A stretch of DNA of 58,415 nucleotides. It comes from a virus (Duplodnaviria; Caudoviricetes). Position numbers and translations under genes: made by a program. Shown here piece by piece: positions 2,129-37,366 of the stretch. Position 1 is the stretch's first letter. Every line of letters begins with the position of its first letter. Location of the stretch: positions 1 to 58,415 of the IMG/VR virus record IMGVR_UViG_3300032236_000753; one strand, 5' to 3'. The notes below the pieces were generated by a model. The model saw only the letters and a list, made by a program, of their open reading frames with translations. It did not search any database and was not told the origin of the DNA.

Positions 2129-2544
2129 TGGAACTTTTTATCCAAATCCGAAATGGTCAGCCGTTTGAGCACCCGATCTTTGGCGACAACTTTCGTCAGG
2201 CTTTTCCTGACGTTGATGTAGACAATCTGCCGTCTGAGTTCGCTAGGTTTGAACGTGTGCCGCAGAATGTTGTGCCGGACATTTTTGAAGTAGCGGAGGT
2301 TCGCTACGAATGGTTTGACGCCATTGTCAAAGATGTTTGGTCAGTGCGCCCTATGACAGCTCAGGAAAAAGCTGACAAGATTGCTCAATACCGGGCACAT
2401 CAACCTTTTCCGTCATGGACATTTGACGAGACCACATTAAAGTGGTCCGCGCCGACACCGAAGCCCGATGACGGACAAAAGTACCGTTGGGACGAAGCTA
2501 CCTTATCTTGGGTTGTTTTTGTCCCGCCTGCACCAACATCTTGA
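2128..2544 (+). CDS. Hypothetical protein, probable tail-fibre-associated chaperone
   Basis: Translationally coupled (TAATG) to the fibre gene; C-terminal PFPSW...W-x-AP-x-P-x-P-x-DG-x-x-Y-x-WDE motif often seen in small genes beside phage fibres. Confidence 0.6.
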   Translation: MELFIQIRNGQPFEHPIFGDNFRQAFPDVDVDNLPSEFARFERVPQNVVPDIFEVAEVRYEWFDAIVKDVWSVRPMTAQEKADKIAQYRAHQPFPSWTFDETTLKWSAPTPKPDDGQKYRWDEATLSWVVFVPPAPTS

Positions 2545-2554
2545 GGGGAAGATA

Positions 2555-3253
2555 ATGTGCAAATCACCAGATGAAGCGATAATACCAGCGCAGACGTATT
2601 CTGGTCCGCAGTTAGACCCATTTTTTTGCTTTCCAACTGCTGTCTACACAATCAAACTGCCGCAGTATGTAGATGCCGCCAAAACGGTCGTAACGGAAGC
2701 TATCGCTGCAAAAAAGAAAACGATCAAAAAAATGAATGAAATTTATCCGTTGATTATGACGGATAACTTGCACACTGATCCGCGCATGGCGGATCTAGCG
2801 GCATTCATTGGCCAAACTGCGTGGAACATTTTGAATGGCCAAGGTTATGCCATGCAAAATTTATCTACGTATTTTACGGAGTTTTGGTGCCAAGAACATC
2901 ATAAGCACTCTGCAATGGAGCAGCATGTTCATGGGTTTGGCTCACAGCTTGTGGGCTTTTACTTTATTGACGTGCCCAAAGATAGCTCCGTGGTGCTGTT
3001 TCATGATCCCAAAGCTGGTAAGGTTCAGCTTAACTTGCCTGAAGCAGACATAAACCAAGCTACGTTCGCGTCTAACATCATCAATTTTATTCCTGAACCG
3101 GGTTTGTGCATGTTTGCTCCTGCTTGGCTGGCGCATTCGTTCACTAGACATGCGGCAAGCAAGCCGATGCGGTTTATCCACTTTAACGTCAGTGTGCAAA
3201 TGAATGCTGCGCCAACAGCATGTCCTATGCATTCTGATGTTGAGGTAATTTGA
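2555..3253 (+). CDS. Putative 2OG-Fe(II) oxygenase (TIGR02466-like)
   Basis: HxH (QHVH), GFYFI, FHDP, P-x-PG-x-x-x-F-x-PAWLAHS and R-x-x-x-FN motifs; start re-placed at ATG 2555 after GAGGGG. Confidence 0.8.
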   Translation: MCKSPDEAIIPAQTYSGPQLDPFFCFPTAVYTIKLPQYVDAAKTVVTEAIAAKKKTIKKMNEIYPLIMTDNLHTDPRMADLAAFIGQTAWNILNGQGYAMQNLSTYFTEFWCQEHHKHSAMEQHVHGFGSQLVGFYFIDVPKDSSVVLFHDPKAGKVQLNLPEADINQATFASNIINFIPEPGLCMFAPAWLAHSFTRHAASKPMRFIHFNVSVQMNAAPTACPMHSDVEVI

Positions 3254-8714: not shown

Positions 8715-9389
8715 ATGCCGCTTTCCAAGGGTTCTTCGAAAAAAACAATCAGCCACAACATCTCGGAGATGATTCATGCTGGTCATCCCCAGGATCAAGC
8801 AGTTGCTGCGGCGTTGAACACTGCCCGCAAGGGACATGCTTTTGGTAGTCACGTTCCTGCGTTTATGAAAAAACCAGTTAGCGCAAAAGGGGAAATGAGC
8901 CATGCTCCAGCCGCGCCAGCCAAGCCAACGAGCCCCAAGATCCATGTTGGTCCGATCCACAGCGCAGTGGCGGGGCGCACGGATCATTTGCCAGTACATG
9001 TCCCATCAGGAGCCTATGTTATCCCTGCGGACATTGTATCGGCAATGGGCGAAGGCAACACGATGGCTGGCTTTAAAGTTTCGCGGCGCATCTTTGACGG
9101 AATGCCTTATGGCGGGGGAAAGCCACTATATGGCCAAGCAGGAATGCCGTATGGCGGCAATCTCGCTCGTGGTGGCCAGCCTCACGAATCGGGGGAAACG
9201 GTAATTAATGAGCCTGGAGTGGCTGTCATTGTTGCGGGTGGAGAGTATGTAATTCACCCAGATGATGTACGTAGATTAGCGGATGGTGACTTGGACGAGG
9301 GGCACCAAACTCTAGATCATTTTGTAACTAAAATGAGAGCTAGAACAGTTAAGACGTTGAAAAATCTGCCTGGGCCAAAGCGAGACTAA
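8715..9389 (+). CDS. Hypothetical virion-associated protein with two G[AE]YVI-x-x-D-x-V repeats and an LARGG motif
   Basis: Basic N-terminus ([16 protein letters not shown]); repeats [11 protein letters not shown] and [11 protein letters not shown]. Confidence 0.7.
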
Positions 9390-9399
9390 GGGGAACAAT

Positions 9400-9927
9400 A
9401 TGGGTCGCAGAGAAGTTATTATCCCTCGGAAGAAGGAAGAGTTGGTCATTCGACTGGGTACGCCGGATGATATTAATGAAGTAATGAATCTTGCATTGTC
9501 GGCGTGTGATGAAAATGGGTTTGTAGAGCCAAACCCGCATAAGCTTTACAATGAAATATGGCCAGCATTGAATAAAATTTACGGGATGGTCGCGCTTATT
9601 GGCAAGCCCGGTGGCCAAGCTGAAGGTGGCATCCTTTTAAGAGTCGGGGCCATGTGGTATTCTGACAGAATGGTTCTGGAGGAAAAGGCGGTTTTTATCC
9701 ACCCGGATTTTCGATCAGCTAGGGGTGGTCGTGCCAGTAAATTGTGCCGTTTTGCAAAAGAAGCCGCCGATATTTTGGATCTTCCTTTGATGATTGGCGT
9801 ACTGTCTAACCAGCGTACAGAAGCAAAGGTGCGCATGTATGAACGTGAATTTGGCAAGCCAAGCGGTGCTTTCTTCCTCTACAAAGCCAATACGGGACTT
9901 GGGAGCGGAGATGGGCAACTTAACTGA
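9400..9927 (+). CDS. GNAT-fold acyltransferase-like protein, copy 1
   Basis: IRLGTPDDI start and VFIHPDFRSARGG-RA acyl-CoA-binding-like motif; upstream of the ejection protein. Confidence 0.7.
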   Translation: MGRREVIIPRKKEELVIRLGTPDDINEVMNLALSACDENGFVEPNPHKLYNEIWPALNKIYGMVALIGKPGGQAEGGILLRVGAMWYSDRMVLEEKAVFIHPDFRSARGGRASKLCRFAKEAADILDLPLMIGVLSNQRTEAKVRMYEREFGKPSGAFFLYKANTGLGSGDGQLN

Positions 9928-10441
9928 GTATATAGGCAAACGTAAGAATGATATTTTTTCGATCCGTGCGGCAACAACGGATGATGTTTATGAAATCATG
10001 ACTTTGGCGGAAGAAGTCTATGGTGAAATGTGCATTGTCGCGCCGGATAAGGAAAAGATCCTGAACACGCTTTGGCCAGCTTTGCTTCAGGAAGATGGTG
10101 TGTGTTTTGTTGTTGTCGGACCCGATAGCAAAATTCAAGGCGGTGTGCTAATAAGAACAGGTGAGCTTTGGTTCTCCACAGAAAAGCTTTTGATCGAAAA
10201 CCTGTTATTTATCAGTAAGAAGTATCGAAATACGTCGAGCGGGTTGCTCCGGGCAAAGCTATTGTGCAATGCAGCAAAAAGACGATCAGATGAGTTAGGT
10301 ATGCCGCTCTGCATAGGGGTTTTTAGTACGGATCGTACTGAGAGCAAGATGCGGTTTTACGAGTCGCAGTTTGGTTCGAGTGTCGGCGGGTCGTTTTTGT
10401 ATGGAGCCAAATCTGGCCAATACAAAGTAGCGGAGAAGTAA
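9911..10441 (+). CDS. GNAT-fold acyltransferase-like protein, copy 2 (paralogue of 9400..9927)
   Basis: IRAATTDDV, WPAL, GGVLIR-x-G-x-x-WFS, LFISKKYR, IGVFS-x-x-RTESKMRFYE, FG...GGSFLY align with copy 1; start at ATG 9911. Confidence 0.7.
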   Translation: MGNLTEYIGKRKNDIFSIRAATTDDVYEIMTLAEEVYGEMCIVAPDKEKILNTLWPALLQEDGVCFVVVGPDSKIQGGVLIRTGELWFSTEKLLIENLLFISKKYRNTSSGLLRAKLLCNAAKRRSDELGMPLCIGVFSTDRTESKMRFYESQFGSSVGGSFLYGAKSGQYKVAEK

Positions 10442-10442
10442 T

Positions 10443-13400
10443 ATGTGTGGTGGCGGCGGAACTACTACATCCGTATCTTGCACTAAGCCACCTCCGTGTG
10501 TGCTTCAGGCTTATCAGAACGCCGTCGCCCGGATGAACGAGGCTGCAAATCAGCCTTTTGTTGCTTATGGTCAAACTCCCTGTGCTTATGTTGCCGGGCT
10601 TTCTTCTGCCCAAAAAGCTGGGATGCAGAATATCAATAGCTTGATGGGTTCTGCCACCAAGTGCGTTCAGGGTGGGCAAAATTATTTGATGCAGGGCGCA
10701 AACCAGGGAATTGGTTTGCAAAATCAATCTCTTTGCTTGGCCAACCAGGGGCTCGGTATGGCTTCTGGCATCAATTTGAATGCCTTGCAGGGGATTTGTG
10801 CGGCTAGAGCGCAGGGTCAACAGTATCTCGGTGGCGCTACTTGCTTGACAGCAAACGCAATTCGCACCGGCAACATGTACGCTGGGCAGGCGCAGCCTTT
10901 CTACACTGGTGCTTTGCAGGCTGCTGCTCCGATGACGGCTGCTTCTCAGCAGTTTATCGGTGCGGGAACTCAAAATCTTAACCCGACTGCGGTTCTTCCT
11001 GCGGTTAGCGCGTTTGAAAACCCCTATACACGCTGCGTGATTAACGCCACTCAGCGGGCTATGGCCCAGCAGAATGCGCAGCAGGCGTCAAATTTGCAAG
11101 GTTGCGCCATTATGAAGGGCGCTTACGGTGGATGCCGTGCGGGAATCGCGCAGGCTAATCTGGCATATCAGCAGAATTTGGCCAATCAGCAGACGCTGGC
11201 TAATCTGTATTGCAAAAACTATTCACAGGCTCTTGCTGCGGCGCAACAGCAGCAGGGTGTTTGCCTTGCAGCGCAGCAGGCTAATCGTGCAGCGCAGCAA
11301 TATGGTGCGCAGCAGGCGGCTGCTTTGGCTCAGCAGCAATATAATCAAGTTATGGGTGTTGGTACTGGCTTGGCGGCACTTGGCCAGCAGCAGTATGGCC
11401 AGAACCTCGGCACTGGCGCGCAGCTTAATACGCTTGGCAATACAGGATACAGCCAGGGTATCGGCGCGGCTCAGGCTCAGGCTGGCATTGGTCAAAACAT
11501 TTTTGGCAATGCCGCTCAGACTGCGGGTCTCTATCAGGGTGCTGGAAACAACATTGCCAATACGTCGCTGAATGCTGGCAATGCTTACGCCAATCTCGGT
11601 ATGCAGAATCAGCAGCTTCAGTTGGCCAATGCCAACGCGCAGATGCAGGCTGGTTTGGTTTGCCAGCAAACTGAACAGGCGAAGAAGACTGCTGGGTACA
11701 ACACATTTCAGCAGCAGCAGGGGTATCCCTTCCAGACGGCAAGTGCTGTTGCGAACACTGCTGAAGCCACTGGCGCGGCTTCTGGATCCACTTCTACGGG
11801 AACCTCGCATACCAGCAGTGGCTTTGCTGCGGGTGGCGCGGTTGGTCGTCCGAGTAAATATTACGGCGGCGGGTTAGGCGCTTCGAGCCAAGGTGGTGCA
11901 GTATTTAATCCGGGGGCATATGCTCGCGGCGGATATGATGCTGGCGGAACGCCGGGGCGTTCGTATTATCAAACATATACTGAAGATGGGTCAGAATATT
12001 GGGCGGATGATTCTGGTAACGCCGTTTCAAACGATGACCCCGGATTGCAAGCATTTATTGCAAATGGTCAGAAACCTGTGACTAGCACTGGGTCGTCTTT
12101 GCAGAACGAGCAACTCGTTAATAATGCTTATCAAGCAGTTTTTGGACATGCGCCGGATCCTGACGGTTTAAAAACTTGGACGAATGAATTAGCCAGCGGT
12201 CGCGTTACTCCGCAAACTTTGAACGATGTTCTTTTCAAAAACGCTCAAGGCACCGATGTTGAAGCAGCCAGAAGGGTGCAGCTTGAAAATCAAAAAAATG
12301 CCCAATACGAGGGTTTAATTAATAACGCATATGGCGGATTGGGGCGTTCTGGTATCGGTACTGCTGTCAATAACATTGATCAGGCGGGACATGATTATTG
12401 GTTGAATCAGCTTAAATCTGGCGCAATCACGCCAGATCAATTTCAAGCGCAGTTTGCTAAAGGCGCTGAAACTGCATTTGCCAATGATCCAAACAATCCC
12501 AGTGTTCAATACGCTAATGCGTATGCTTCATCGAACCCCAATGGCGGCATCAGAGGCACTCAATGCGCCAATACTGCATATTACAATATGCAGAAGTATG
12601 GCCCAATTGCGCCAACAACCAATGGTTTCAACCCCGCTGGGTTCAAGCCGGTTCTTTGCGGCGATGTGATTAAGTATCAATGCCCCAATAACCCCAGTGT
12701 TTCCTACACTTCGGCGCAACTTGCCTCGATGACTGGCGCCCCTCCGTGCATTACTGCACTGAAGGGTGGCGCAAACATGGTTTACAACCCGAATTTGTAT
12801 CAAAAGCCGGGATGCGCAACCACGAATCAGTATGGTTTTGCTAGTGGTAATGCTGCTGGCGTAGGTAATTTGCCAGCTAGTATGGCGAATGCGGCTTATC
12901 GCCCGACAAACACACAATGTGCGTTTCTGAGCGGTCTTGGAAATCTGTTTAATTCCTACCAGCCGCAGCAGCAGAACACTTATATGCCGAAGTTTAATTT
13001 TGGCAGTGCATGTACCGCGAATCCCATGGGTGCTGGCGCATATGGAGCATTACCTACTGCCAACTTAAAGGGTACGTCTTCCATGGCTGGCGGTTATTCG
13101 CCTTATGCCACCCAGCAATATACTCAGCAGCAGTATCAAGCTCCTGCTCAGCAGCAGTATCAGGCGTATGCCCCACAGCAGCCGATGTATAATGATTATT
13201 ATGGCTCGTATCAGCAGCCAAATTATGGGATGCGTTCGTCTGCCACCTATGGCCAGCCAAGCCCGGCTTACAATGCAACAGGTTATGGGCAACAGCCAAG
13301 TGGTGGCCCCATTGCGCTTGCAACTGAACAAGCGACTGGCACTTACAGCGGCGGCGCTTCTGGTCAATATTCTGGTAATTGGGCAGATGCGGCAAATACG

Positions 13401-16400
13401 CAGAATGCCCAGATGGCCACAACGGGGCAGACGGCGGTTCCCGGTGCTTCTGCGGCGAAGCCATTCGCAAATGGTGGTCGCGCTGGATTTGCTTTGGCTG
13501 GCGCAGTTGGTTGTGCGAGCCAGTTCGGGTGTGATCGTGCAGCGCGCATGGCGCTTGGCGCTATAAACCCCTATGCTGCTTCGCCTAACGCTGGTGGTGG
13601 ATATGCAGCGAATATTCCTGCGCAATATGTCAGCAGCAAGGGATTGCAGGGTGTCGCGCCTCCTACACCGCAGAAGAAGGCTTCTGGCTTAGCCACAGTT
13701 ATGCAAATGCCGCAGCAGGCTGCTGGCGCTATTGAAGGCGTCGAAAAGCTTGGTACGGCTGGCAAAGATGCTTACAAGTGGGCAACAGAACCAGCGAAAG
13801 CTCGTGGCGGGCGCATGGGATTCGCCACAACTGGCACTGTTCCCTGCTGCTGCAGTTATGTAACCAATCGCACTAATTTTGGCGACTATGGTTCGCAGCC
13901 TTATGGCGCTGCTGGCGCAACAGGAAGCCCGCAAGTTCCCAACAGCAAATCAGGCTACGTAATGCCCGGTTTGGCTCCGAATCCGTGGTCACATATTCAG
14001 CCTTTGAAGCCTGCATCACTTCCGGCTGCGCCGACGCCACAGAACCCGCTTAAAACTGCGGCTAACATGGCTGGACAAGCAAAAACGCTCGCCAGTTTGC
14101 CTAGTGACATTAGCAAAATGAAAACTGGGTTGGGCAATTTGTTTGGTGGTGCTTCGGATACTGGCGCGGCGTCTACTGCTGCTACTTCTGGTATGCCCGG
14201 TGCAATTGATCTTACAACGCCTGTTCCTGCTAACGCTGCTACGGGACTTGGCAGCGCGGGTGCTAATGCGGCATCTGCTGCAGCACCTGCTGTAGCGGAT
14301 ACCAGTCTGGCAGCGTCTAGTGCGATGCCTGCTGCGATTGATCTTACTTCTGGCGCGACGGGTCTTGGCGCTGCGGGTGGTGCGGCTGCTATCCCAGAGG
14401 CTGCTGGCAAAGGTGCTGCTGCGATACCTGAAGCGGCTGGTAAGGGCGCTATGCTGTTGTCCCGTGGCGGTGCTGCGCACTATGCCCATGGTGGATTTGT
14501 GCCGCGCACACGGTTCGCTGATGGTGGCCCCGAAGACGCGCCCGCCGCAGATCTCCCATCTGAAAACGCCAACGAGGCTATTGGAAATGGTCTTCCGCCT
14601 GGCGTAAGCGAAACTGAAGCTTTTGGGAAAAAAGAAAAACCACAACAATCAAGTAAAGATCTTGTCGAAGATTATTTGCAACGCACTATTAATCGCGAAA
14701 GTCGTGGCAATGAATTTGCTAAATCTACGACTTCAACGGCTGGTGGTCTTGGGCAAGTAATTAATTCGACTGCACGAAGCTGGCTGGATAAAAACAATGT
14801 TCCTTATGACCCAAATGCATCTCACATAGCAGCAACATTGCCCAAAGAAACGCAAATAGCGATGAACCGCGATTTAATTCGTGGCCATATCGATGCATTG
14901 CAAGGTCGTGGATTAGACCCTTCATACGGTAACGTAACTATGGCGCACTTCCTTGGTGATGCTGGTGGCCCGGCTTTTGTCAAAAATATGCTGGCAAATC
15001 CAGATGCGCCTGCAACATCATTTGTAACGCCACAAGCCGCTAGTAAGAATCAATCTATTTTCTTTAAGAATGGACAACCGCGCAGTGCCCAGGAAGTCTA
15101 TAATCTTATGGAAAAAGCTGGCCAGGGCGGCGGTGGTGGCAGCGCCATGTCTTACGCTCCGGTTCAGCGTATGGCTTCCGGGGCATCTGATGCAATCAAC
15201 AGCATCATGAGCGGTGGCAAAGAAGCTACTAATCAAATGATTAGCGGCGGGAAAGATATTGCTGGCGGCATTAGTGATGCTGCTAGTGGTGTTGGCGATT
15301 GGTTTACTCAGAATAAGTCTTGGATCTTGCCAATTCTGGCTGGTCTTGGCGCGGCTGGACAAGCTTCTGGTCAAGGTATGGGTCGCGGATCTTCGATCCT
15401 TTCTGGTCTTGGCGGTTTTGCCACCCAATATGGCAACATGGCGTATCAGCAGAGCCAGATCAATAAAAACAATATTGATCTGTTCAACCAGAACGTCATC
15501 ATGACCAGAGATGAGAACGGCGCTATTAAAGCCACTGACAAATTGGGTAGACCCCTTTCGCAGCAACAAGTTGAGCAACTGTGGTCTCAAGCAACTGGCA
15601 ATAATCCTGCTTTAAGAGCCATTGGTTCGCCAACACCGCCAGTTGTCCCGGCAAATGCTACACAAGAACAAATCGCTGCAACTAAGCCGCAGCAGAAAGA
15701 AACTTCTGCGGAAGCGGGGGCTCAAGCTGCTGCTCCTAAAACTGAACAGCCAGCCATAGGTGGCCAGCCAAAACAGCCATCCGCAACGGATCAGGCTGCT
15801 CAAACTGCTTTTGAGCCTGCACCCGGTGCGCTTAATCTTAATTCTGAATTGAGCAAATTGCGCCAAGTTGCGTTGACGCAAACTCAATGGCCTAGCGATC
15901 CCAATCAAAACCCTAATGCTCTGTTGCAGCAAGCTAATTCTGCACAGCAGGAAGCTGCTCGCTGGGAAAAGGTTTCTGGGAATAATGCGAATTACAACAA
16001 GGAGTATGCGGCAACTGCGCATCAGCAAGCTTTGGATTGGCAGAAAAAAGCCATGGATTACACGGAACAAGCTAATAAGCTTGTTGAACCCATCATCAGC
16101 GGCAACAAAGATTTCCTCGCCAAACGCGCTGATTCTTTGAATACAAGCGCGATGGGTTTTGATAAGGAAACGGGTGAAAGTTCTCTTAATTCTCAGCGCG
16201 ATATGCAAATGCAGGATCAGCTTGCTGAAGTTTTGAAAAATCACAAATTTGGTCCTGGCACTGAACTTTGGCAAGAAATTAACAAATACAAAAATCTTGT
16301 TCCTGGGTTAGATACGGTAGTAAATTATTTTTCGAACGGGGCCAATCAAGAATGGGCATCGGCTAGTCAAGATGCGCAGAAAAAAGCAGAAACTATGCTT

Positions 16401-16859
16401 GTCCAAGCGGTTTCGGCTATGGGTCTGCAACGCGCTCCAGCTTCATCTGCGCAACATCTTTCTAAGATTGTACCGGGGATCGAAGTTGAACCTGGTGCCG
16501 CATATGACATCATCACGAATCAACGTGCATATGATATGCAACAGCTTGATATGAACAAAGCGTGGAGAGAAGCGCGAACATCGCACGATAAAAATGGATA
16601 TATTCCCAACTCAGAATTGTGGAAACAAAATTGGGTGGAAAATAATCCAATTGAAAATTACAAGCATGCTGCGCATCTCGCGGTTCCCACACCAACTGGT
16701 ATGACGCCAAATGAAGTAAGGGAATATGGGCCTAAGATTAGTGACCCGAGCGAAATTCAAAAAATGCGCCCTGGAACGCAATTTATGTTTGCTTCTGGTC
16801 CTAACCAAGGTCGGATTGGGGTGATAACGTCGGATCGTAAAGCGGCTTTAGTGCCCTAG
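10443..16859 (+). CDS. Large DNA-ejection / internal virion protein (2138 aa) with Q/A/G-rich helical N-terminus, two DUF4214-like repeats and a lytic-transglycosylase-like domain
   Basis: MCGGGG start; AYQAVFGHAPDPDGLKTW and AYGGLGR...DQAGHDYWLNQL repeats; INRESRG...AKSTTSTAGGLGQ...AHFLG lysozyme-like motif; late hydrophobic segments. Confidence 0.8.
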   Translation: MCGGGGTTTSVSCTKPPPCVLQAYQNAVARMNEAANQPFVAYGQTPCAYVAGLSSAQKAGMQNINSLMGSATKCVQGGQNYLMQGANQGIGLQNQSLCLANQGLGMASGINLNALQGICAARAQGQQYLGGATCLTANAIRTGNMYAGQAQPFYTGALQAAAPMTAASQQFIGAGTQNLNPTAVLPAVSAFENPYTRCVINATQRAMAQQNAQQASNLQGCAIMKGAYGGCRAGIAQANLAYQQNLANQQTLANLYCKNYSQALAAAQQQQGVCLAAQQANRAAQQYGAQQAAALAQQQYNQVMGVGTGLAALGQQQYGQNLGTGAQLNTLGNTGYSQGIGAAQAQAGIGQNIFGNAAQTAGLYQGAGNNIANTSLNAGNAYANLGMQNQQLQLANANAQMQAGLVCQQTEQAKKTAGYNTFQQQQGYPFQTASAVANTAEATGAASGSTSTGTSHTSSGFAAGGAVGRPSKYYGGGLGASSQGGAVFNPGAYARGGYDAGGTPGRSYYQTYTEDGSEYWADDSGNAVSNDDPGLQAFIANGQKPVTSTGSSLQNEQLVNNAYQAVFGHAPDPDGLKTWTNELASGRVTPQTLNDVLFKNAQGTDVEAARRVQLENQKNAQYEGLINNAYGGLGRSGIGTAVNNIDQAGHDYWLNQLKSGAITPDQFQAQFAKGAETAFANDPNNPSVQYANAYASSNPNGGIRGTQCANTAYYNMQKYGPIAPTTNGFNPAGFKPVLCGDVIKYQCPNNPSVSYTSAQLASMTGAPPCITALKGGANMVYNPNLYQKPGCATTNQYGFASGNAAGVGNLPASMANAAYRPTNTQCAFLSGLGNLFNSYQPQQQNTYMPKFNFGSACTANPMGAGAYGALPTANLKGTSSMAGGYSPYATQQYTQQQYQAPAQQQYQAYAPQQPMYNDYYGSYQQPNYGMRSSATYGQPSPAYNATGYGQQPSGGPIALATEQATGTYSGGASGQYSGNWADAANTQNAQMATTGQTAVPGASAAKPFANGGRAGFALAGAVGCASQFGCDRAARMALGAINPYAASPNAGGGYAANIPAQYVSSKGLQGVAPPTPQKKASGLATVMQMPQQAAGAIEGVEKLGTAGKDAYKWATEPAKARGGRMGFATTGTVPCCCSYVTNRTNFGDYGSQPYGAAGATGSPQVPNSKSGYVMPGLAPNPWSHIQPLKPASLPAAPTPQNPLKTAANMAGQAKTLASLPSDISKMKTGLGNLFGGASDTGAASTAATSGMPGAIDLTTPVPANAATGLGSAGANAASAAAPAVADTSLAASSAMPAAIDLTSGATGLGAAGGAAAIPEAAGKGAAAIPEAAGKGAMLLSRGGAAHYAHGGFVPRTRFADGGPEDAPAADLPSENANEAIGNGLPPGVSETEAFGKKEKPQQSSKDLVEDYLQRTINRESRGNEFAKSTTSTAGGLGQVINSTARSWLDKNNVPYDPNASHIAATLPKETQIAMNRDLIRGHIDALQGRGLDPSYGNVTMAHFLGDAGGPAFVKNMLANPDAPATSFVTPQAASKNQSIFFKNGQPRSAQEVYNLMEKAGQGGGGGSAMSYAPVQRMASGASDAINSIMSGGKEATNQMISGGKDIAGGISDAASGVGDWFTQNKSWILPILAGLGAAGQASGQGMGRGSSILSGLGGFATQYGNMAYQQSQINKNNIDLFNQNVIMTRDENGAIKATDKLGRPLSQQQVEQLWSQATGNNPALRAIGSPTPPVVPANATQEQIAATKPQQKETSAEAGAQAAAPKTEQPAIGGQPKQPSATDQAAQTAFEPAPGALNLNSELSKLRQVALTQTQWPSDPNQNPNALLQQANSAQQEAARWEKVSGNNANYNKEYAATAHQQALDWQKKAMDYTEQANKLVEPIISGNKDFLAKRADSLNTSAMGFDKETGESSLNSQRDMQMQDQLAEVLKNHKFGPGTELWQEINKYKNLVPGLDTVVNYFSNGANQEWASASQDAQKKAETMLVQAVSAMGLQRAPASSAQHLSKIVPGIEVEPGAAYDIITNQRAYDMQQLDMNKAWREARTSHDKNGYIPNSELWKQNWVENNPIENYKHAAHLAVPTPTGMTPNEVREYGPKISDPSEIQKMRPGTQFMFASGPNQGRIGVITSDRKAALVP

Positions 16860-16869
16860 GAGTTTGGTC

Positions 16870-19512
16870 ATGGCAGATAACGCCAATACAAATGATCCTT
16901 GGGCCAGCGTTATGGCTGATCCTGGGTCAATTACTCCGCCTAAACGAAGCGAAACCAGTGGGTCTGCCCCTGTTTCGGATAAAAACGACCCTTGGTCCAG
17001 TGTTATGGCTGAACCTGGATCTTATAAAGCGCCCACTAGTGGTGCGCCCACGCAACCTATGGGTAATATTGTAAATATACCGATGGGTACAGAAGAAAAA
17101 CCAACACCTTGGTCAGAAGTTGGCAAAGGTTTTGTCGCGAATGTTGTTCCAAGCACTGGTCGCGCTATTGTTGGCGCGGCTGAAGGTCTTGGTCATGCTG
17201 TCATGCATCCGATTGATACTGCTCAAGGCATTGGGCATTTAGCTAAGGGGCTTTATTCAAAAGAAGAAGGTTGGCGTGGTGCCAAGCAGGATCCTGAACA
17301 AAAAGCTCAGGATGAGGCGCTTGTTAACGCTTTCATGCAAAGCTATTCGGATAAATATGGTAGTTGGGAAGGATTCAAACATACTCTGGCAAACGATCCA
17401 GCCAGCATTGGTATGGATTTAGCAACAGTAGCATCTGGTGGCGAATTGGCTGCTGGAAAGCTTGCTGGGTTGGCTGGAACGGCAACCACTACAGGAAAAG
17501 TTTTGGGCACTGCTGCCGATGTGGCAGGCAATGTGGCTAAATATACAAATCCGTTGACGCCCGCGACAACTGCTGTTGGCGCTGTGGCAAGTAAAGTTGG
17601 TGCGCCTATAATCGGCAAAGTGTTCAAAACGGCTGGCCAGCCGGGCACAGAACCTATTTGGGATGCATCTGCTGGTACGTTCACGCAGCCAGTACAGGAT
17701 TTAATTAAAACGCATTTTGAAGGGCGTTTAGATCCTGCTGTTTTGCATGACATTAAAGACAGCATATCCCATGAGATGAGTGAAGGTGGCATCAATAGCG
17801 CCTCTTTGGATCAAGCTTTGTTAAAAGCGCAAGGGATGGCACCAACCACTAGCGGCGTCACTGGTATTAAAGCACCTGCTGAAGCTAAGGCTGGTTTGGA
17901 AGAAGTTCGCGTTAAAAATATGCTGCAAGCGCAGCAAAATGCGGAATCTTTAATTGGTGGGCCAATTCCTAATACGCCTGTCATGGGCGATGCGCTTGAA
18001 CAGGCTATGGAAGCCAGAAAAAATAATTATGCGCAGGCTTATGATGCTTTAAATGCAAACACGGATCGGCTGCATCCTTCGGTCTTCAATGGTTTGGTGC
18101 CCGACTTACATGCGGCGGTTGAAGCTAGATTGGGCACTTCTTTAGATCCGTCAAAATTTGCTGGATACTCTGGCAAGCGCGGTTTGTCATCTAATCAAAC
18201 TGCATTCCCTGGCACTCAAGAAGCAATAGATATTCTAAAAAATGATCTTGCACCTATCCCTACTGCGGTTCCTATGCAAGCTCCGCAACAGGGTATGCAG
18301 ATGCTACCTAAAGTAACTGCTTTGGGCCCAATAACGCAAAAAACCATCAATGATGTTCGAAAATCCCTAAATAAAATTTGGGACAATGCCAGCGACATGG
18401 ATCGTCGCGGGATTGATGCTGTCAAACAGGTATTAGATGATCGAATTGATGGGGCGTATAGCTCGGTAACTTCGCCTAGATCCACAAACCCCTTGGTATT
18501 TGATGCTAAGGGGAGACCGTTGTCTCCTAGTCAAGCGGCTCAAACCCGCAATTTGATTGGTGATGCAAACAGCAAATATGCTGACTATCGAAATACATTT
18601 ACAAATTATTCCACCACACCCGATGGCGTAATCGCCCGTGCAGCAAAAAACTTAAACAATAGTTTAAAATATGATCCGCAAAGCCAAGCCTGGGTTGGCC
18701 AAGCCACTCCTGAAATGCATAATATTGCCCAAAGTACTTTGCTGCAAGGATTAAAAGATCCTGCTAAATCAGCGGCAATATATGATAAATTAGCTGGTCC
18801 GCAGGGAGTTTTTGCTTCATCTCCGCAGCATATTGATATGCTTGACCAAATGCTTAGGCGTTCAATTTTGAATGGTGATGCCGAAAAATTGCCCGCAAAT
18901 ATAGACAAGTTTTTGAAAACTAATAAAGCCTTGGCAGATAGAATCTTCCCTGTAACTTCTGCTGGAGTGAACCCGCAAAACGAGCTTCGTCAACTTGGTG
19001 AAGCAATTCGTAGCGCCAATAAAATTCCAGACACAAATCCTGCTAAACCAGGAATATTACGGGATCTTACTGGAAGACTTGGAAAAGCCGGAATAATTGC
19101 AATGGGCCACGGTGTGGGTGGCGGAATGGGCGCAATAACTGCTGGCATCATTAGCCATAACTTGCATATGCCGCCTCCAACTCCAGAAGCGGCACTTGCT
19201 AGACAGTTGCAGGGTAATCCTAAGTTGCCTGCATCAGCCTATGCACCAGAGGTTCCGCCTGCACTCAGCGATGCGGCAAATGCTGCTGCCTTGGCCAGCG
19301 GTGAGTACGAAGAAAATGTCCCTCGTTATCTTACCATTCACCGCAAAGCAGGTGGTCGCGTGTCTAAAACAACGCCTGAGCAGCGCGCCGAGAAGCTTAT
19401 CCGCATGGCGGATCTTGCTAAAAAGCAAGTTAACAAGACGACAGAAACTCTCCTTAGCGCCCCTGACGAGGCTGTGGTAAAAGCCTTGAAGATAGCCCAG
19501 GCTCACATATAA
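16870..19512 (+). CDS. Second DNA-ejection / internal virion protein
   Basis: NDPW-x-SVMA-x-PGS repeats at the N-terminus, Ala/Gly-rich hydrophobic stretches, C-terminal RKAGGRV; follows the large ejection gene. Confidence 0.7.
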   Translation: MADNANTNDPWASVMADPGSITPPKRSETSGSAPVSDKNDPWSSVMAEPGSYKAPTSGAPTQPMGNIVNIPMGTEEKPTPWSEVGKGFVANVVPSTGRAIVGAAEGLGHAVMHPIDTAQGIGHLAKGLYSKEEGWRGAKQDPEQKAQDEALVNAFMQSYSDKYGSWEGFKHTLANDPASIGMDLATVASGGELAAGKLAGLAGTATTTGKVLGTAADVAGNVAKYTNPLTPATTAVGAVASKVGAPIIGKVFKTAGQPGTEPIWDASAGTFTQPVQDLIKTHFEGRLDPAVLHDIKDSISHEMSEGGINSASLDQALLKAQGMAPTTSGVTGIKAPAEAKAGLEEVRVKNMLQAQQNAESLIGGPIPNTPVMGDALEQAMEARKNNYAQAYDALNANTDRLHPSVFNGLVPDLHAAVEARLGTSLDPSKFAGYSGKRGLSSNQTAFPGTQEAIDILKNDLAPIPTAVPMQAPQQGMQMLPKVTALGPITQKTINDVRKSLNKIWDNASDMDRRGIDAVKQVLDDRIDGAYSSVTSPRSTNPLVFDAKGRPLSPSQAAQTRNLIGDANSKYADYRNTFTNYSTTPDGVIARAAKNLNNSLKYDPQSQAWVGQATPEMHNIAQSTLLQGLKDPAKSAAIYDKLAGPQGVFASSPQHIDMLDQMLRRSILNGDAEKLPANIDKFLKTNKALADRIFPVTSAGVNPQNELRQLGEAIRSANKIPDTNPAKPGILRDLTGRLGKAGIIAMGHGVGGGMGAITAGIISHNLHMPPPTPEAALARQLQGNPKLPASAYAPEVPPALSDAANAAALASGEYEENVPRYLTIHRKAGGRVSKTTPEQRAEKLIRMADLAKKQVNKTTETLLSAPDEAVVKALKIAQAHI

Positions 19513-19521
19513 AGGTGAAGC

Positions 19522-20598
19522 ATGACCACGACATACACGGTAAACAAGGATCTTGCGCTTCCCGGAACCGGCGATGACGTTGGGACATGGGGTCCAGTGG
19601 TCAATGGTAACTTCTCCATCATTGACTCGGCGTTCGGTGGTACGTTTACCGTGTCACTTTCAAACACAAACGTCACGCTGACCCAAGCGAACGTAGAAGC
19701 TGTTCGCATTCGCTTGACTGGAACCGTAACTGCATCTTTGCAAGTTATTTTTCCTTCGGGGATTTCTGGGTTTTATATCGTTCAGAATGCGACTACTCAG
19801 GGCAGTAATGTCATCACCCTATCCAGCGCAGGTGGTGGAACTTCTGTGACCGCAACGGCTGGTGCAGCCACGTTTATCTTCTCGGATGGCACCAATATCA
19901 TTTATGCGAGCCCTACGACAGTTACGGCTGGAACCGGGATTTCGGTTGTCGGCTCAACGGTTAGCTTGTCCACCCCGGTATCTGTCGCAAATGGCGGCAC
20001 GGGGCAATCTACTTACACCAATGGCCAGCTTCTTATTGGAAATAGCACCACTGGCGGGCTTACTCCGGCTACATTGACAGCGGGCACCAATATCTCAATT
20101 GCCAACACGGCGGGCAATATCGTCATTAGTGCCGGTGCAACAGGTGGCACAACCACTTACACTGGCTTGCAGACTTATCTTGGATCCGTGAACAATCTAG
20201 CAGCTTTGCTTACCAACGCAGGTGAAGTCGTCACGATACTCGCGTCGGCACCATCTAGCCCAGTTTCGTTTAACATAACCAATCAATCGGTTGGTTACGT
20301 CACGGCAAATGCCACAGGTAATTGGACTCTAGCGATTACAGCGTCATCGACAACGACACTCAATTCAATCATGAGTGTTGGGCAAAGCGTGACCATTGCT
20401 TACTTGGCCCAGTGCGGAACAACGGCATATTACAATAATGCCGTAACCATTGATGGCACTTCGGTCACGCCAGTATGGCAGGGTGGGGCTCCAACTGCGG
20501 GCTATGCGTCTTCTTTGAACGCATATACCTACACAATTATCAAAACGTCTACTACGCCGACTTGGACAGTGCTGGCGTCGCTAACACAATTTACGTAA
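19522..20598 (+). CDS. Tail fibre/needle-like virion protein
   Basis: Thr/Ser/Gly-rich, with a V-x-NGGTG fibre motif; C-terminal domain paralogous to the 58117/1-283 protein. Confidence 0.7.
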   Translation: MTTTYTVNKDLALPGTGDDVGTWGPVVNGNFSIIDSAFGGTFTVSLSNTNVTLTQANVEAVRIRLTGTVTASLQVIFPSGISGFYIVQNATTQGSNVITLSSAGGGTSVTATAGAATFIFSDGTNIIYASPTTVTAGTGISVVGSTVSLSTPVSVANGGTGQSTYTNGQLLIGNSTTGGLTPATLTAGTNISIANTAGNIVISAGATGGTTTYTGLQTYLGSVNNLAALLTNAGEVVTILASAPSSPVSFNITNQSVGYVTANATGNWTLAITASSTTTLNSIMSVGQSVTIAYLAQCGTTAYYNNAVTIDGTSVTPVWQGGAPTAGYASSLNAYTYTIIKTSTTPTWTVLASLTQFT

Positions 20599-21070
20599 CC
20601 GCTTCTTCCTGTTTTTTCTTAGACTTCACCGTATTTGGCACATAACATAGTTTATGGTGTTGCTCGCAGCACCAACGATATGTTTTGACTTTCCCGCAAA
20701 ATAACGCTTCTTTGCCGCTTGGCTGGTCGATGACATATCTACAATGCCAATGCTCTAGATCAATTAATTTAACATATGTCGAAGTTTCTGTTTGTTCTTG
20801 TGATGGTAATTCCGCCACAGGTTCAAACACAAATTTCAATTGATTTTGCGTAGGTTTGCTTTTTGGCGCTTGCTTGACCATTGGCAACTCCTGCGGGGGC
20901 GCAAGGTTAACTTCTTTGGGTGCTTTCTGTCGTAAAGTTACGCCTTTTTCCCTTAATCGGAAAATCATCCCCATGACCGCGCCACGGGTTATTCCCAATT
21001 CCTTGGCAATTTGATTGGAAGAAAAACCTTTCTCCCATAGCTGAACAATTTTTTGATTTCTTTCGCTCAT
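20591..21070 (-). CDS. gcrA: GcrA cell-cycle regulator homologue
   Basis: N-terminal HTH (LWEKGFSSNQIAKELGITRGAVMGMIFRL) and C-terminal LIDL-x-x-x-HCRY...FCG...CEQH motif. Confidence 0.85.
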   Translation of the reverse strand: MSERNQKIVQLWEKGFSSNQIAKELGITRGAVMGMIFRLREKGVTLRQKAPKEVNLAPPQELPMVKQAPKSKPTQNQLKFVFEPVAELPSQEQTETSTYVKLIDLEHWHCRYVIDQPSGKEALFCGKVKTYRWCCEQHHKLCYVPNTVKSKKKQEEAVT

Positions 21071-36575: not shown

Positions 36576-36957
36576 AGACAAGATGCTCATTGAAGTTGAA
36601 GTTTCGTTCAACGAATTTGTATCCGTGATCACAAAAGAATTTGGAACAAAGTTTCCACAGGCTTTGCGTGATCAATTTATGAATGCGTCAGCTATCGATG
36701 ACGGCGATCTAAATAACTTGAAAACAACAATTAGACGCACGGGCAAATGGCTGTGGAACTATCAGTATGGCGCTACAGGGATTGTGTCCGAACAAATTGT
36801 CGAGTCACGGAAGGCAATAGAGCAGCTAGTGTCTATCCTGCACATTGGCCAAGCTTATCCTGAAAAAGCAGCGGCGCGGGCTATAAAACTGCGCCCCAAA
36901 CTTGTGCTTGATAAAAAACCAAAAATTATTTTGGAGGAACAAGATGCAGACGCTTGA
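36565..36957 (+). CDS. Hypothetical protein
   Basis: GGAG RBS; coupled ORF. Confidence 0.6.
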   Translation: MSPKDKMLIEVEVSFNEFVSVITKEFGTKFPQALRDQFMNASAIDDGDLNNLKTTIRRTGKWLWNYQYGATGIVSEQIVESRKAIEQLVSILHIGQAYPEKAAARAIKLRPKLVLDKKPKIILEEQDADA

Positions 36958-37366
36958 GGAAATGCATCAACATTACAAGGCTGTGCGGAATCGGCTAAGA
37001 TACGCGCCACCCCAAAAACCTGTGGTAATCGCTTTTGTACCTCAGCCTGAACCTGAACCTGAGCCTGAGCCTGAGCCTGAGCCGCAACCAGAAGAAATTA
37101 AATATGCAATCCAGATTGCGCTGCCATTAAGCCCAGCGCAATACATTTTGCAGGAAGTGGCTCTAAAGCATGGCATTACCACCCAAGACATCAAATGCCA
37201 CAGCCATAAAAAATTGTTCGTAAAAGCCAGACAAGAAGCAGCGTATTTAATGCAAAAAAATTTAAAGTTATCGTTGCCAATGATAGGTCGCGTCATGGGC
37301 AAACGAGACCATACAACAATTTTGCATGCGATTCGGCAGTACAAAAAACTGAACCAGATAGAATAG
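36944..37366 (+). CDS. Stand-alone DnaA C-terminal (domain IV) HTH protein with a (PE)n linker
   Basis: ARQEAAYLM...SLPMIGRVMGKRDHTTILHAIR matches the DnaA domain IV signature; GGAGG RBS. Confidence 0.85.
   Translation: MQTLEEMHQHYKAVRNRLRYAPPQKPVVIAFVPQPEPEPEPEPEPEPQPEEIKYAIQIALPLSPAQYILQEVALKHGITTQDIKCHSHKKLFVKARQEAAYLMQKNLKLSLPMIGRVMGKRDHTTILHAIRQYKKLNQIE

Follow-up and report, generated by a model that had tools for sequence, protein, structure and literature searches.

What does a small acetyltransferase-like gene do in front of the ejection proteins of a short-tailed phage, and what does it mean when the ejection protein behind it carries cysteines (Cys) at positions where its relatives carry acidic residues? 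Both questions are raised by the virus record IMGVR_UViG_3300032236_000753 (Duplodnaviria; Caudoviricetes), and 'the window' is used here for this complete record of 58,415 bp, in which direct terminal repeats are present. It represents the genome of an uncultured podovirus encoding a portal and an adaptor of the SU10 type, and its open reading frame (ORF) at 10443..16859 (+ strand) codes for a fused internal-virion/ejection protein of 2138 amino acids (aa), which is preceded by two GNAT genes. In short-tailed phages, the ejection proteins assemble into the conduit through which DNA crosses the cell envelope. For the small gene ahead of them, the literature consulted gives no settled role: it is described as acetyltransferase-like, required for morphogenesis and absent from the virion (PMC4819975), and in Pfam it is a 'probable scaffold'. 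The hundreds of natural variants of the locus lead to a specific prediction, namely that residue 39 of the GNAT protein changes together with the lysine (Lys) or the second-position cysteine (Cys2) in the N-terminal tail of the ejection protein. We regard the object as a variant of a known podovirus internal virion protein (IVP) module, and its most interesting side is this covariation between GNAT and tail.

The ejection protein begins with ATG TGT GGT GGC GGC GGA, one base past the preceding stop; the MCGGGG start pointed out in an earlier note on this DNA is indeed the first possible start of the frame. Its Gly-rich N-tail (MCGGGGTTTSVSCTKPPPC; residues 1-19, 10443..10499, +), which we propose as the acyl-acceptor segment, has Cys2, no early Lys, and Cys19 where the family has Glu. 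In relatives, the tail preceding the conserved IPPEV is likewise Gly-rich and nearly always contains Lys (MGGGK, MGGK, MSGGGK) or Cys2 (MCGG), with Lys being present in 106 of 108 tails that lack Cys2 and absent from 20 of 25 tails that have it. On the tree, Cys2 was gained or lost at least 9 times. The covariation was determined for 87 distinct tail/GNAT combinations, including 42 additional Cys2 loci. A hydrophobic residue 39 (Ile, Met, Leu or Ala) accompanies all 22 Lys-less Cys2 tails and none of the 65 early-Lys tails, where the residue is Asn in 64 cases and Gly in one, and the early-Lys group includes three MCGK/MCGSK tails that have both Cys2 and Lys. With phylogeny not accounted for, the association between residue 39 and tail type gives a Fisher P of 4e-21; on the GNAT tree the residue-39 change corresponds to at least 4 independent events. 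Two GNATs were found only in the window together with its sister locus L084, in L064 and in L122, and all three of these distinct arrangements pair a distal copy carrying Asn39 with a proximal one whose residue 39 is hydrophobic. The window thus holds one GNAT of each type: GNAT1 (9400..9927, +; 175 aa), 'Lys-type' with Asn39 in CDENGF, which resembles an orthologue of the relatives' single GNAT, and GNAT2 (9911..10441, +; 176 aa from the ATG at 9911, analysed as 9935-10438), 'Cys-type' with Met39 in YGEMCI. The start of GNAT2 is most likely the ATG at 9911, which lies behind GGAG and makes the gene overlap GNAT1 by 17 nucleotides (nt), rather than position 9935. In the sequences compared, GNAT and the Gly-rich tail change together, and a second GNAT goes with a Cys2-type tail rather than with Cys richness. 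The simplest reading of these comparisons is that the GNAT protein recognises the tail, and it probably acylates the tail nucleophile.

The pairing of the two genes is constant across the loci compared, which number 80, 42 and 5 in three sets out of roughly 490. A GNAT lies upstream of the ejection-protein gene, either directly or within about 0.8 kb, in 78 of the 78 viral loci with upstream DNA in the first set, and it is also found in 41 of 41 Cys2 loci and in all five contigs with the GGCR (D231C) pattern described below. As the earlier note had supposed, the two window genes are paralogous (40% identity, E 9e-42) and GNAT1 models as a GNAT: the AlphaFold2 model (pLDDT 89.5, pTM 0.83) shows the GNAT fold, and a Foldseek search with it returned at least 500 PDB matches at E <= 1e-3, those listed all being GNAT acetyltransferases with TM-scores of ~0.6-0.66. 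Both proteins match phrog_1249 'acetyltransferase' (E 4e-5 for GNAT1 and 9e-7 for GNAT2), and when the PDB was searched with a profile of the GNAT alignment, the acetyltransferase matches were only marginal (E 0.028 to 0.22). Conservation is higher in the GNATs than in the giant protein that follows them. In 49 aligned GNATs (38-68% identity to GNAT1) residues E95, R105, K120, K143 and Y147 are invariant, and the loop R-S-A-[KR]-G-G-R-A before helix alpha3 is invariant or nearly so. The residue roles that we assume for E95 (strand beta4), Y147 (helix alpha4), R105 and the Gly-Gly loop would together make up the pattern of an active GNAT. Residue 39 is placed at the end of helix alpha1 by the AlphaFold2 model.

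The second part of the question concerns the cysteines of the ejection protein. The unusual composition that the earlier note had described proved exact, and every Cys string quoted there is present in the protein. Residues 1-498, which are rich in Gln, Ala, Gly and Asn (15, 19, 14 and 9%), contain 14 Cys (positions 2, 13, 19, 47, 74, 98, 119, 134, 198, 221, 231, 257, 274 and 407), no Asp and 4 Glu; residues 499-700, the segment containing DUF4214, have 14 Asp and no Cys; 12 more Cys lie at residues 708-1137, where the CCC at 1135-1137 ends at nt 13853; and residues 1138-2138 have none (Cys-free remainder, residues 1139-2138, 13857..16856, +). Cys therefore makes up 2.3% of residues 1-1137 (26 Cys) versus 0.77% in 31 other phage genes (binomial P = 1.6e-6), and its complete absence from the last 1001 residues has a P of 4e-4. 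All 14 N-terminal Cys fall within the family-wide Q-rich N-domain (residues 1-448, 10443..11786, +), which has no Asp and a net formal charge of about +10, and which AlphaFold2 predicts to be all-helical at low confidence (pLDDT 61, pTM 0.35).

This composition stands out against the family. Of 7999 candidates scored against residues 1-500, 657 proteins, 1200-2400 aa long, match at E <= 1e-3, giving a family of at least 657 members; the homologue counts reported here refer to the best 120 of these 657 matches, of which 119 homologues entered the composition counts and the alignment. Among these 119 homologues 81 have no Cys, 31 only Cys2, 3 one or two other Cys, and 4 are Cys-rich, which means that 112 of them, with 193,776 residues, contain no Cys other than, at most, Cys2. 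The 78 distinct ORFs from viral loci, which were found by a profile scan (a scan of viral contigs with the single protein gave no match), have a similar distribution, with 69 lacking Cys, 5 having only Cys2, 3 having one or two others, and 1 being Cys-rich. This large metagenomic family excludes Cys almost completely.

The exceptions fall into a few groups. One is formed by the window and three Cys-rich relatives, namely P0001 (~90% DNA identity, from locus L084, with the same two GNATs), P0003 and P0004. A metagenome scan for the window locus returned only L084, the near-identical strain (~90% nt identity) with the same two GNATs, and no independent case. A scan for the GGCR pattern added four Cys-rich loci (L087, L089, L090 and L091) to L020, and these five loci have 11-16 Cys each in 582-1420 residues, a single GNAT and a Lys-type tail, with Peptidase_S74 kept in most. 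The tree of the core of the giant protein covers only ~185 aa with some sequences dropped, among them P0005-P0018 and P0109, and was not used to judge whether the Cys-rich groups have a single origin or several. Within the window clade, Cys is retained at 25 of 26 aligned positions in P0001, 15 of 18 in P0003 and 13 of 20 in P0004, the overall identities being 81%, 60% and 55%. Some Cys move locally while their number is kept (C739-x7-C747 versus C-x8-C in P0004; C98 versus C105 in P0001), and the motifs GCxSQxGC and VPCCCSYVT are conserved. Because Cys amounts to 2.3% against a background of 0.77%, and because Cys is retained above average identity, we conclude that the window lineage and at least two others, which have a single GNAT, gained Cys under selection, and did so only upstream of the muralytic domain.

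The earlier note had proposed that relatives have acidic or polar residues at these positions, and the 119-sequence alignment bears this out: opposite Cys19 (IPPEV to PPPCV) 107 of 115 homologues have Glu and 5 Asp (112 acidic), and opposite Cys231 (GGDR to GGCR) 100 have Asp and 8 Glu (108 of 115 acidic). The remaining window Cys face variable polar residues (Gln, Asn, Asp, Glu, Ser or Gly), and Asp and Glu together form 27% of all residues facing Cys, versus a background of 3.7%. The conserved acidic positions that turned into Cys are E19, D45 and D231; D231C is found in 7 of 8 aligned Cys-rich sequences, and L020 and L087 have D45C in addition. Cys number and charge are linked as well. The net formal charge of the N-domain follows -2.43 + 0.85 x nCys (n=170), with a slope of 0.85 +/- 0.10; the charge averages -2.4 +/- 2.7 in the 163 Cys-free N-domains and does not exceed +4 there, and the 7 Cys-rich ones, from only three or four lineages, have charges of +8, +9, +7, +4, +6, +6 and +1. 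The window reached this shift by loss of acidic residues and L020 by gain of basic ones. Lys or Arg stands beside Cys in 4 of 14 cases in the window N-domain versus 0.85 expected (P = 0.007), and in 4 of 14 versus 1.23 expected in L020 (P = 0.03). In the alignments and formal charges, the substitution of Cys for acidic residues holds and extends to other lineages.

Taken as a whole, our best explanation has two parts. In the first, the GNAT protein would be an enzyme that acylates a nucleophile of the tail, either the Lys epsilon-amine or Cys2, and would thereby modify the N-terminal end of the ejection protein. Because the N-domain occupies the position of T7 gp14 and P22 gp7, this end may, by analogy, make the first contact with the host envelope. 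The GNAT duplication would mark a stage in the replacement of Lys by Cys as acceptor. In the second, the gained Cys would stand in for acidic residues as thiolates or in metal-bound or oxidised forms, spacer Cys possibly forming cross-links. We consider the combination, with the GNAT acylating the tail and Cys standing in for acids, about equally likely to be right or wrong. We are more hesitant about the wider proposal, which we find somewhat less probable than its negation, that the first proteins of podovirus IVP modules (IVP-A) are working acyltransferases acting on tail Lys or Cys2 with an acyl group that may be lipid-like, and that in a few lineages Cys serve as redox- or metal-sensitive acid stand-ins, giving a charge switch triggered by exit from the reducing cell or by entry into the periplasm. 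If it were true, it would provide a phage counterpart to the activation of RTX toxins or the myristoylation of VP4 in animal viruses. The coupling between residue 39 and the tail, together with the three loci that have both GNAT types, suggests an enzyme acting on its substrate and shows which residues a mutational analysis should target. The repeated and selected breach of the Cys ban, with its charge shift, may be read as a natural experiment on how ejected proteins respond to redox conditions. Our literature searches on acylation of ejection proteins or a role of their N-terminal Cys returned nothing relevant.

Several points weigh against this explanation. The case is built entirely from sequence comparison. 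The covariation rests on about four independent events, its counts ignore kinship, and the same pattern would arise with a chaperone that does no more than bind the tail. The end of helix alpha1 contributes to the acceptor site in GNATs in general, and its putative role here is carried over to an AlphaFold2 model. GNAT1 stays below the Pfam cut-off (Acetyltransf_7, 16.7 versus 27 bits) and GNAT2 has no Pfam hit; the loop at the position of the coenzyme A-binding motif differs from the canonical Q/R-x-x-G-x-G/A; and in GNAT2 this loop is further altered from RSARGGRA to YRNTSSGLLRA, so that GNAT2 copies, with their degenerate loop, may be inactive. As regards the Cys, only three or four lineages supply the seven Cys-rich N-domains, formal charge takes no account of real pKa values, and the paired, relocating Cys of the spacer fit disulfides as well as or better than a role as acid surrogates.

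The reading in which the GNAT-fold protein is not an enzyme at all, but an assembly chaperone or scaffold that holds the N-tail during procapsid loading, with residue 39 as a contact, draws on several of these points and on what is known of the T7 and P22 systems. According to Hardies and colleagues, T7 IVP-A is needed for morphogenesis and is absent from the virion (PMC4819975), Pfam names the T7 gp13 family (PF11090) 'probable scaffold protein Gp13', and the GNAT2 copies lack the Gly-rich loop. In addition, a P22 study gives the mature N-terminus of gp7, read by Edman sequencing, as Lys-Gly-Gly-Lys-Gly (PMC8402733); the N-terminus is thus unblocked, and the alpha-amine and both Lys appear largely unmodified, which argues against stoichiometric acylation in this distant analogue. 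What speaks against a chaperone is that E95, Y147, R105 and the Gly-Gly loop are (nearly) invariant in the 49 sequences, a pattern that, with the residue roles assumed above, is that of active GNATs, and that Lys or Cys is always there as a nucleophile in the tail although the family bans Cys elsewhere, whereas contact alone would need none. We regard a chaperone as improbable, yet as an alternative to be taken seriously.

A second alternative concerns the Cys themselves, which could be structural: they would form disulfides, or bind metal, after the protein leaves the reducing cytoplasm or in the oxidising periplasm, and would stiffen the internal core or lock the conduit across the envelope, the charge shift being a separate adaptation. 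This would fit the confinement of Cys upstream of the muralytic domain, with none in the remainder of the protein or in the two flanking virion proteins, the maintenance of Cys pairs that change position, the conservation of GCxSQxGC and VPCCCSYVT, and the even Cys totals of the full-length members (26, 30 and 26). Disulfide cross-linked phage tails and Cys-enriched capsids are also in print (PMC13576161; bioRxiv 10.64898/2026.07.03.736451). However, a Pfam scan of 44 window ORFs revealed no enzyme that forms disulfides, and structural Cys would leave unexplained both the replacement of the two most conserved acidic positions by Cys and the rise of about 0.85 charges per Cys in three or four lineages. 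We think it rather unlikely that the Cys are purely structural.

The earlier note had proposed another role for the internal Cys, in which they would be S-acylated at multiple sites by the duplicated GNATs or modified by the 2-oxoglutarate (2OG)-Fe(II) oxygenase encoded in the window, and had suggested that the second GNAT evolved for them. It is true that GNAT2 is of the type that accompanies Cys2 tails, that the first 19 residues of the window protein contain three Cys (2, 13 and 19), that P0004, which has neither Cys2 nor early Lys, retains Cys13 and Cys19, and that several Cys adjoin Lys or Arg. However, the five loci L020, L087, L089, L090 and L091 are Cys-rich with a single GNAT of the Asn39 type and Lys-type tails, and L064 and L122, which do have two GNATs, show no Cys other than Cys2 in the 503 and 366 aa available. 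The link to the oxygenase was rejected as well: a 54%-identical homologue is encoded in the L004 genome, whose 2374-aa ejection protein has no Cys, and the gene is missing from three other complete relatives. This role is in our view very unlikely; what stands of the interpretation in the earlier note is the replacement of acidic and polar residues by Cys and the parallel with T7 and P22 considered below, and what falls is the connection of the internal Cys with a second GNAT or the oxygenase. Least probable of all is neutral drift after relaxed selection against Cys, for although the region is low-complexity and fast-evolving and both Cys-rich groups lie on long branches of the core tree, the Cys frequency is three times the phage average rather than equal to it, Cys conservation in the clade is above average, the ban still holds for the C-terminal 1001 residues and for the adjacent proteins of 882 and 224 aa, and D231C recurs in all Cys-rich groups.

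The remainder of the giant protein is modular. Behind the helical Q-rich N-domain, which is at the position of the second protein of the IVP module (IVP-B), follow DUF4214 (PF13946; residues 548-588, 12084..12206, +; Pfam E 1.8e-10, 41.1 bits versus a cut-off of 23.2), a low-complexity spacer rich in Cys, Tyr and Gln (residues 700-1140, 12540..13862, +; 12 Cys), a lytic transglycosylase domain (residues 1403-1565, 14649..15137, +; phrog_4067 'transglycosylase', E 5.1e-20) and a C-terminal part. The window protein gave no SLT match in Pfam, though homologues carry PF01464. The spacer holds C739-x7-C747, C1024-x5-C1030 and the invariant VPCCCSYVT (CCC at nt 13845-13853), and a Gln/Tyr-rich, prion-like stretch (QQYTQQQYQAPAQQQYQAYAPQQPMYNDYYGSYQQPNYG; 13080-13320, residues ~880-960) separates its two Cys-bearing parts. 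In homologues, an N-domain of ~450 residues is followed in most cases by Peptidase_S74 (FF|SDxRLK), then by [YF]A.GG linkers, often by DUF4214, and finally by a muralytic domain of varying type (SLT, CwlJ-like, GH108 or lysozyme). At the place where most homologues have Peptidase_S74, the window protein has a cluster of [YF]A.GG-type motifs (residues 461-503, 11823..11951, +). Peptidase_S74 (PF13884) had no Pfam match in the window protein and the S-D-x-R-x-K motif was also absent from its alignment; the domain is missing from the close clade too, and the N-domain of this lineage therefore probably stays fused to the rest of the protein. The motif clusters (residues 461-503, 1008, 1119 and 1339-1362) coincide with the switches in composition, as the earlier note had seen. 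More generally, the motif [YF]-A-x-G-G (FAAGG, YARGG, FANGG, KARGG, YAHGG, FADGG) recurs at the domain junctions of the giant protein (11823-11951, 13464-13478, 13797-13811 and 14457-14528), motifs of the same type (YATGG, YASGG, FADGG and others) mark the junctions of homologues, and these may be processing or docking sites.

Upstream of GNAT1 lies a conserved 224-aa protein (8715..9389, +) without Cys and with the related motifs PYGG/ARGG, the N-terminus of which matches phrog_2423 and of which L048 has a longer homologue. Downstream of the giant protein, an 882-aa protein (16864..19512, +), also without Cys, is by position only a probable further internal virion protein; scans against Pfam and PHROG did not find a family match for it. 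The window further encodes a terminase, an ERF/YqaJ recombination pair, an endolysin, the 2OG-Fe(II) oxygenase (2468-3253, within the structural gene block) and a GcrA-like cell-cycle regulator (20591-21070, - strand; Pfam E 4e-21), which hints at an alphaproteobacterial host. The 54%-identical oxygenase homologue in a related complete genome (L085, G001:C1:1524-2246) contains one in-frame TGA, which was read through. Immediately before the terminase genes, positions 36902-37366 encode a DnaA C-terminal helix-turn-helix domain (Pfam E 2e-18). Charged residues are nearly missing from two probable fibre proteins: one of 611 aa (293-2128) with a BNR/sialidase-like domain has no Glu, 1.6% Asp, 1.1% Lys and 1.6% Arg, and in one of 358 aa (19522-20598) Asp makes up 1.7% and Glu, Lys and Arg 0.6% each. 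Phage records searched by blastn with 9400-16859 gave no match, tblastn with the giant protein matched only its transglycosylase part in 8 records (including internal virion proteins), and tblastn with GNAT1 matched only MW202675.1; no cultured relative was found by blastn or tblastn. The nearest named record is this metagenomic phage, MW202675.1, in which one 'putative acetyltransferase' is followed by an 'internal virion protein D' of 1185 aa that is Cys-free and begins MGGKTSTTTQQVQIPPEV.

Among the closest known systems is that of T7, and the parallel with T7 and P22 drawn in the earlier note agrees with the sequence records and with the literature. The order gp13-gp14-gp15-gp16 (IVP-A to IVP-D) likewise begins with a small gene of acetyltransferase type whose product is not in the virion, after which come large helical proteins that include a transglycosylase, and HHpred relates T7 IVP-A, along with small genes in syntenic positions, to acetyltransferases (Hardies et al. 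2016, PMC4819975). In the window, too, a small gene lies directly upstream of the first ejection protein, and the N-domain shares with IVP-B proteins an all-helical model, synteny, and tails (MCGG.. or ..GGK..) like the MC.. of T7 and the KGGKGG of mature P22. T7 gp14 (L083, 1229-1819) starts with Met-Cys, its sole Cys is at position 2 and it has no early Lys, as in 31 of the 119 homologues. Unlike in T7, the IVP functions are fused in one protein of 1200-2400 aa, and the GNAT keeps enzyme-like invariant residues. In P22 the order of gp14 (DUF2824) and gp7 is the same as that of GNAT and ejection protein in the window; gp7 (L086, 9369-10058) has no Cys, and host OpdA removes its first 20 residues to leave KGGKGG, which resembles MGGGKGG tails and the ..EFY|GGGGKGG variants of the family. 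T7 gp14 and mature P22 gp7 thus mirror the two tail types, Cys2 and Lys. The variants just mentioned (L004, L046, L059, L089, L091, P0006-P0014, P0067 and P0070) have an N-terminal extension of 30-40 aa (MSNPLLAFRR...HLEFY|GGGGKGG) before the Gly-Lys tail, which resembles the 20-residue propeptide of P22 gp7. Direct profile comparisons did not recover these relationships: hhalign against single T7 sequences gave a probability of 2.7% for the GNAT profile with gp13 and 0.1% for the N-domain profile with gp14, and was negative against single P22 gp14 and gp7 sequences, both being weak tests with targets lacking alignments; Pfam P22_gp7 (PF25688) and DUF2824 (PF11039) had no match in the genome at E <= 10; and a cluster in the ESM Atlas (score 0.86), 18% of whose members have P22_gp7, is a weak lead only.

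Three further systems offer comparisons with single features of the family. The Peptidase_S74 that directly follows the N-domain in most homologues is the same intramolecular chaperone domain (FF|SDxRLK) as that of endosialidase-type tail fibres, which implies that self-cleavage releases the N-domain in those homologues. Disulfide-linked virion parts, such as a siphovirus tail tube and the capsids of gut phages, share with the window protein a lineage-specific Cys enrichment of a virion protein; unlike these external shells with mapped disulfides, the window protein is an internal protein that is ejected and in which Cys replaces acidic residues. RTX toxins are activated by acyltransferases of the HlyC/CyaC type, which have a GNAT-like fold and are encoded by a gene adjoining that of their substrate, and picornavirus VP4 and reovirus mu1N are N-myristoylated. 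Unlike in these systems, the acceptor in the podovirus family would alternate between Lys and Cys2 within one family, and the likeness is one of concept only. The idea in common is activation through acylation: a Gly-flanked Lys or an N-terminal residue receives the acyl group, and the membrane-active protein thereby becomes competent.

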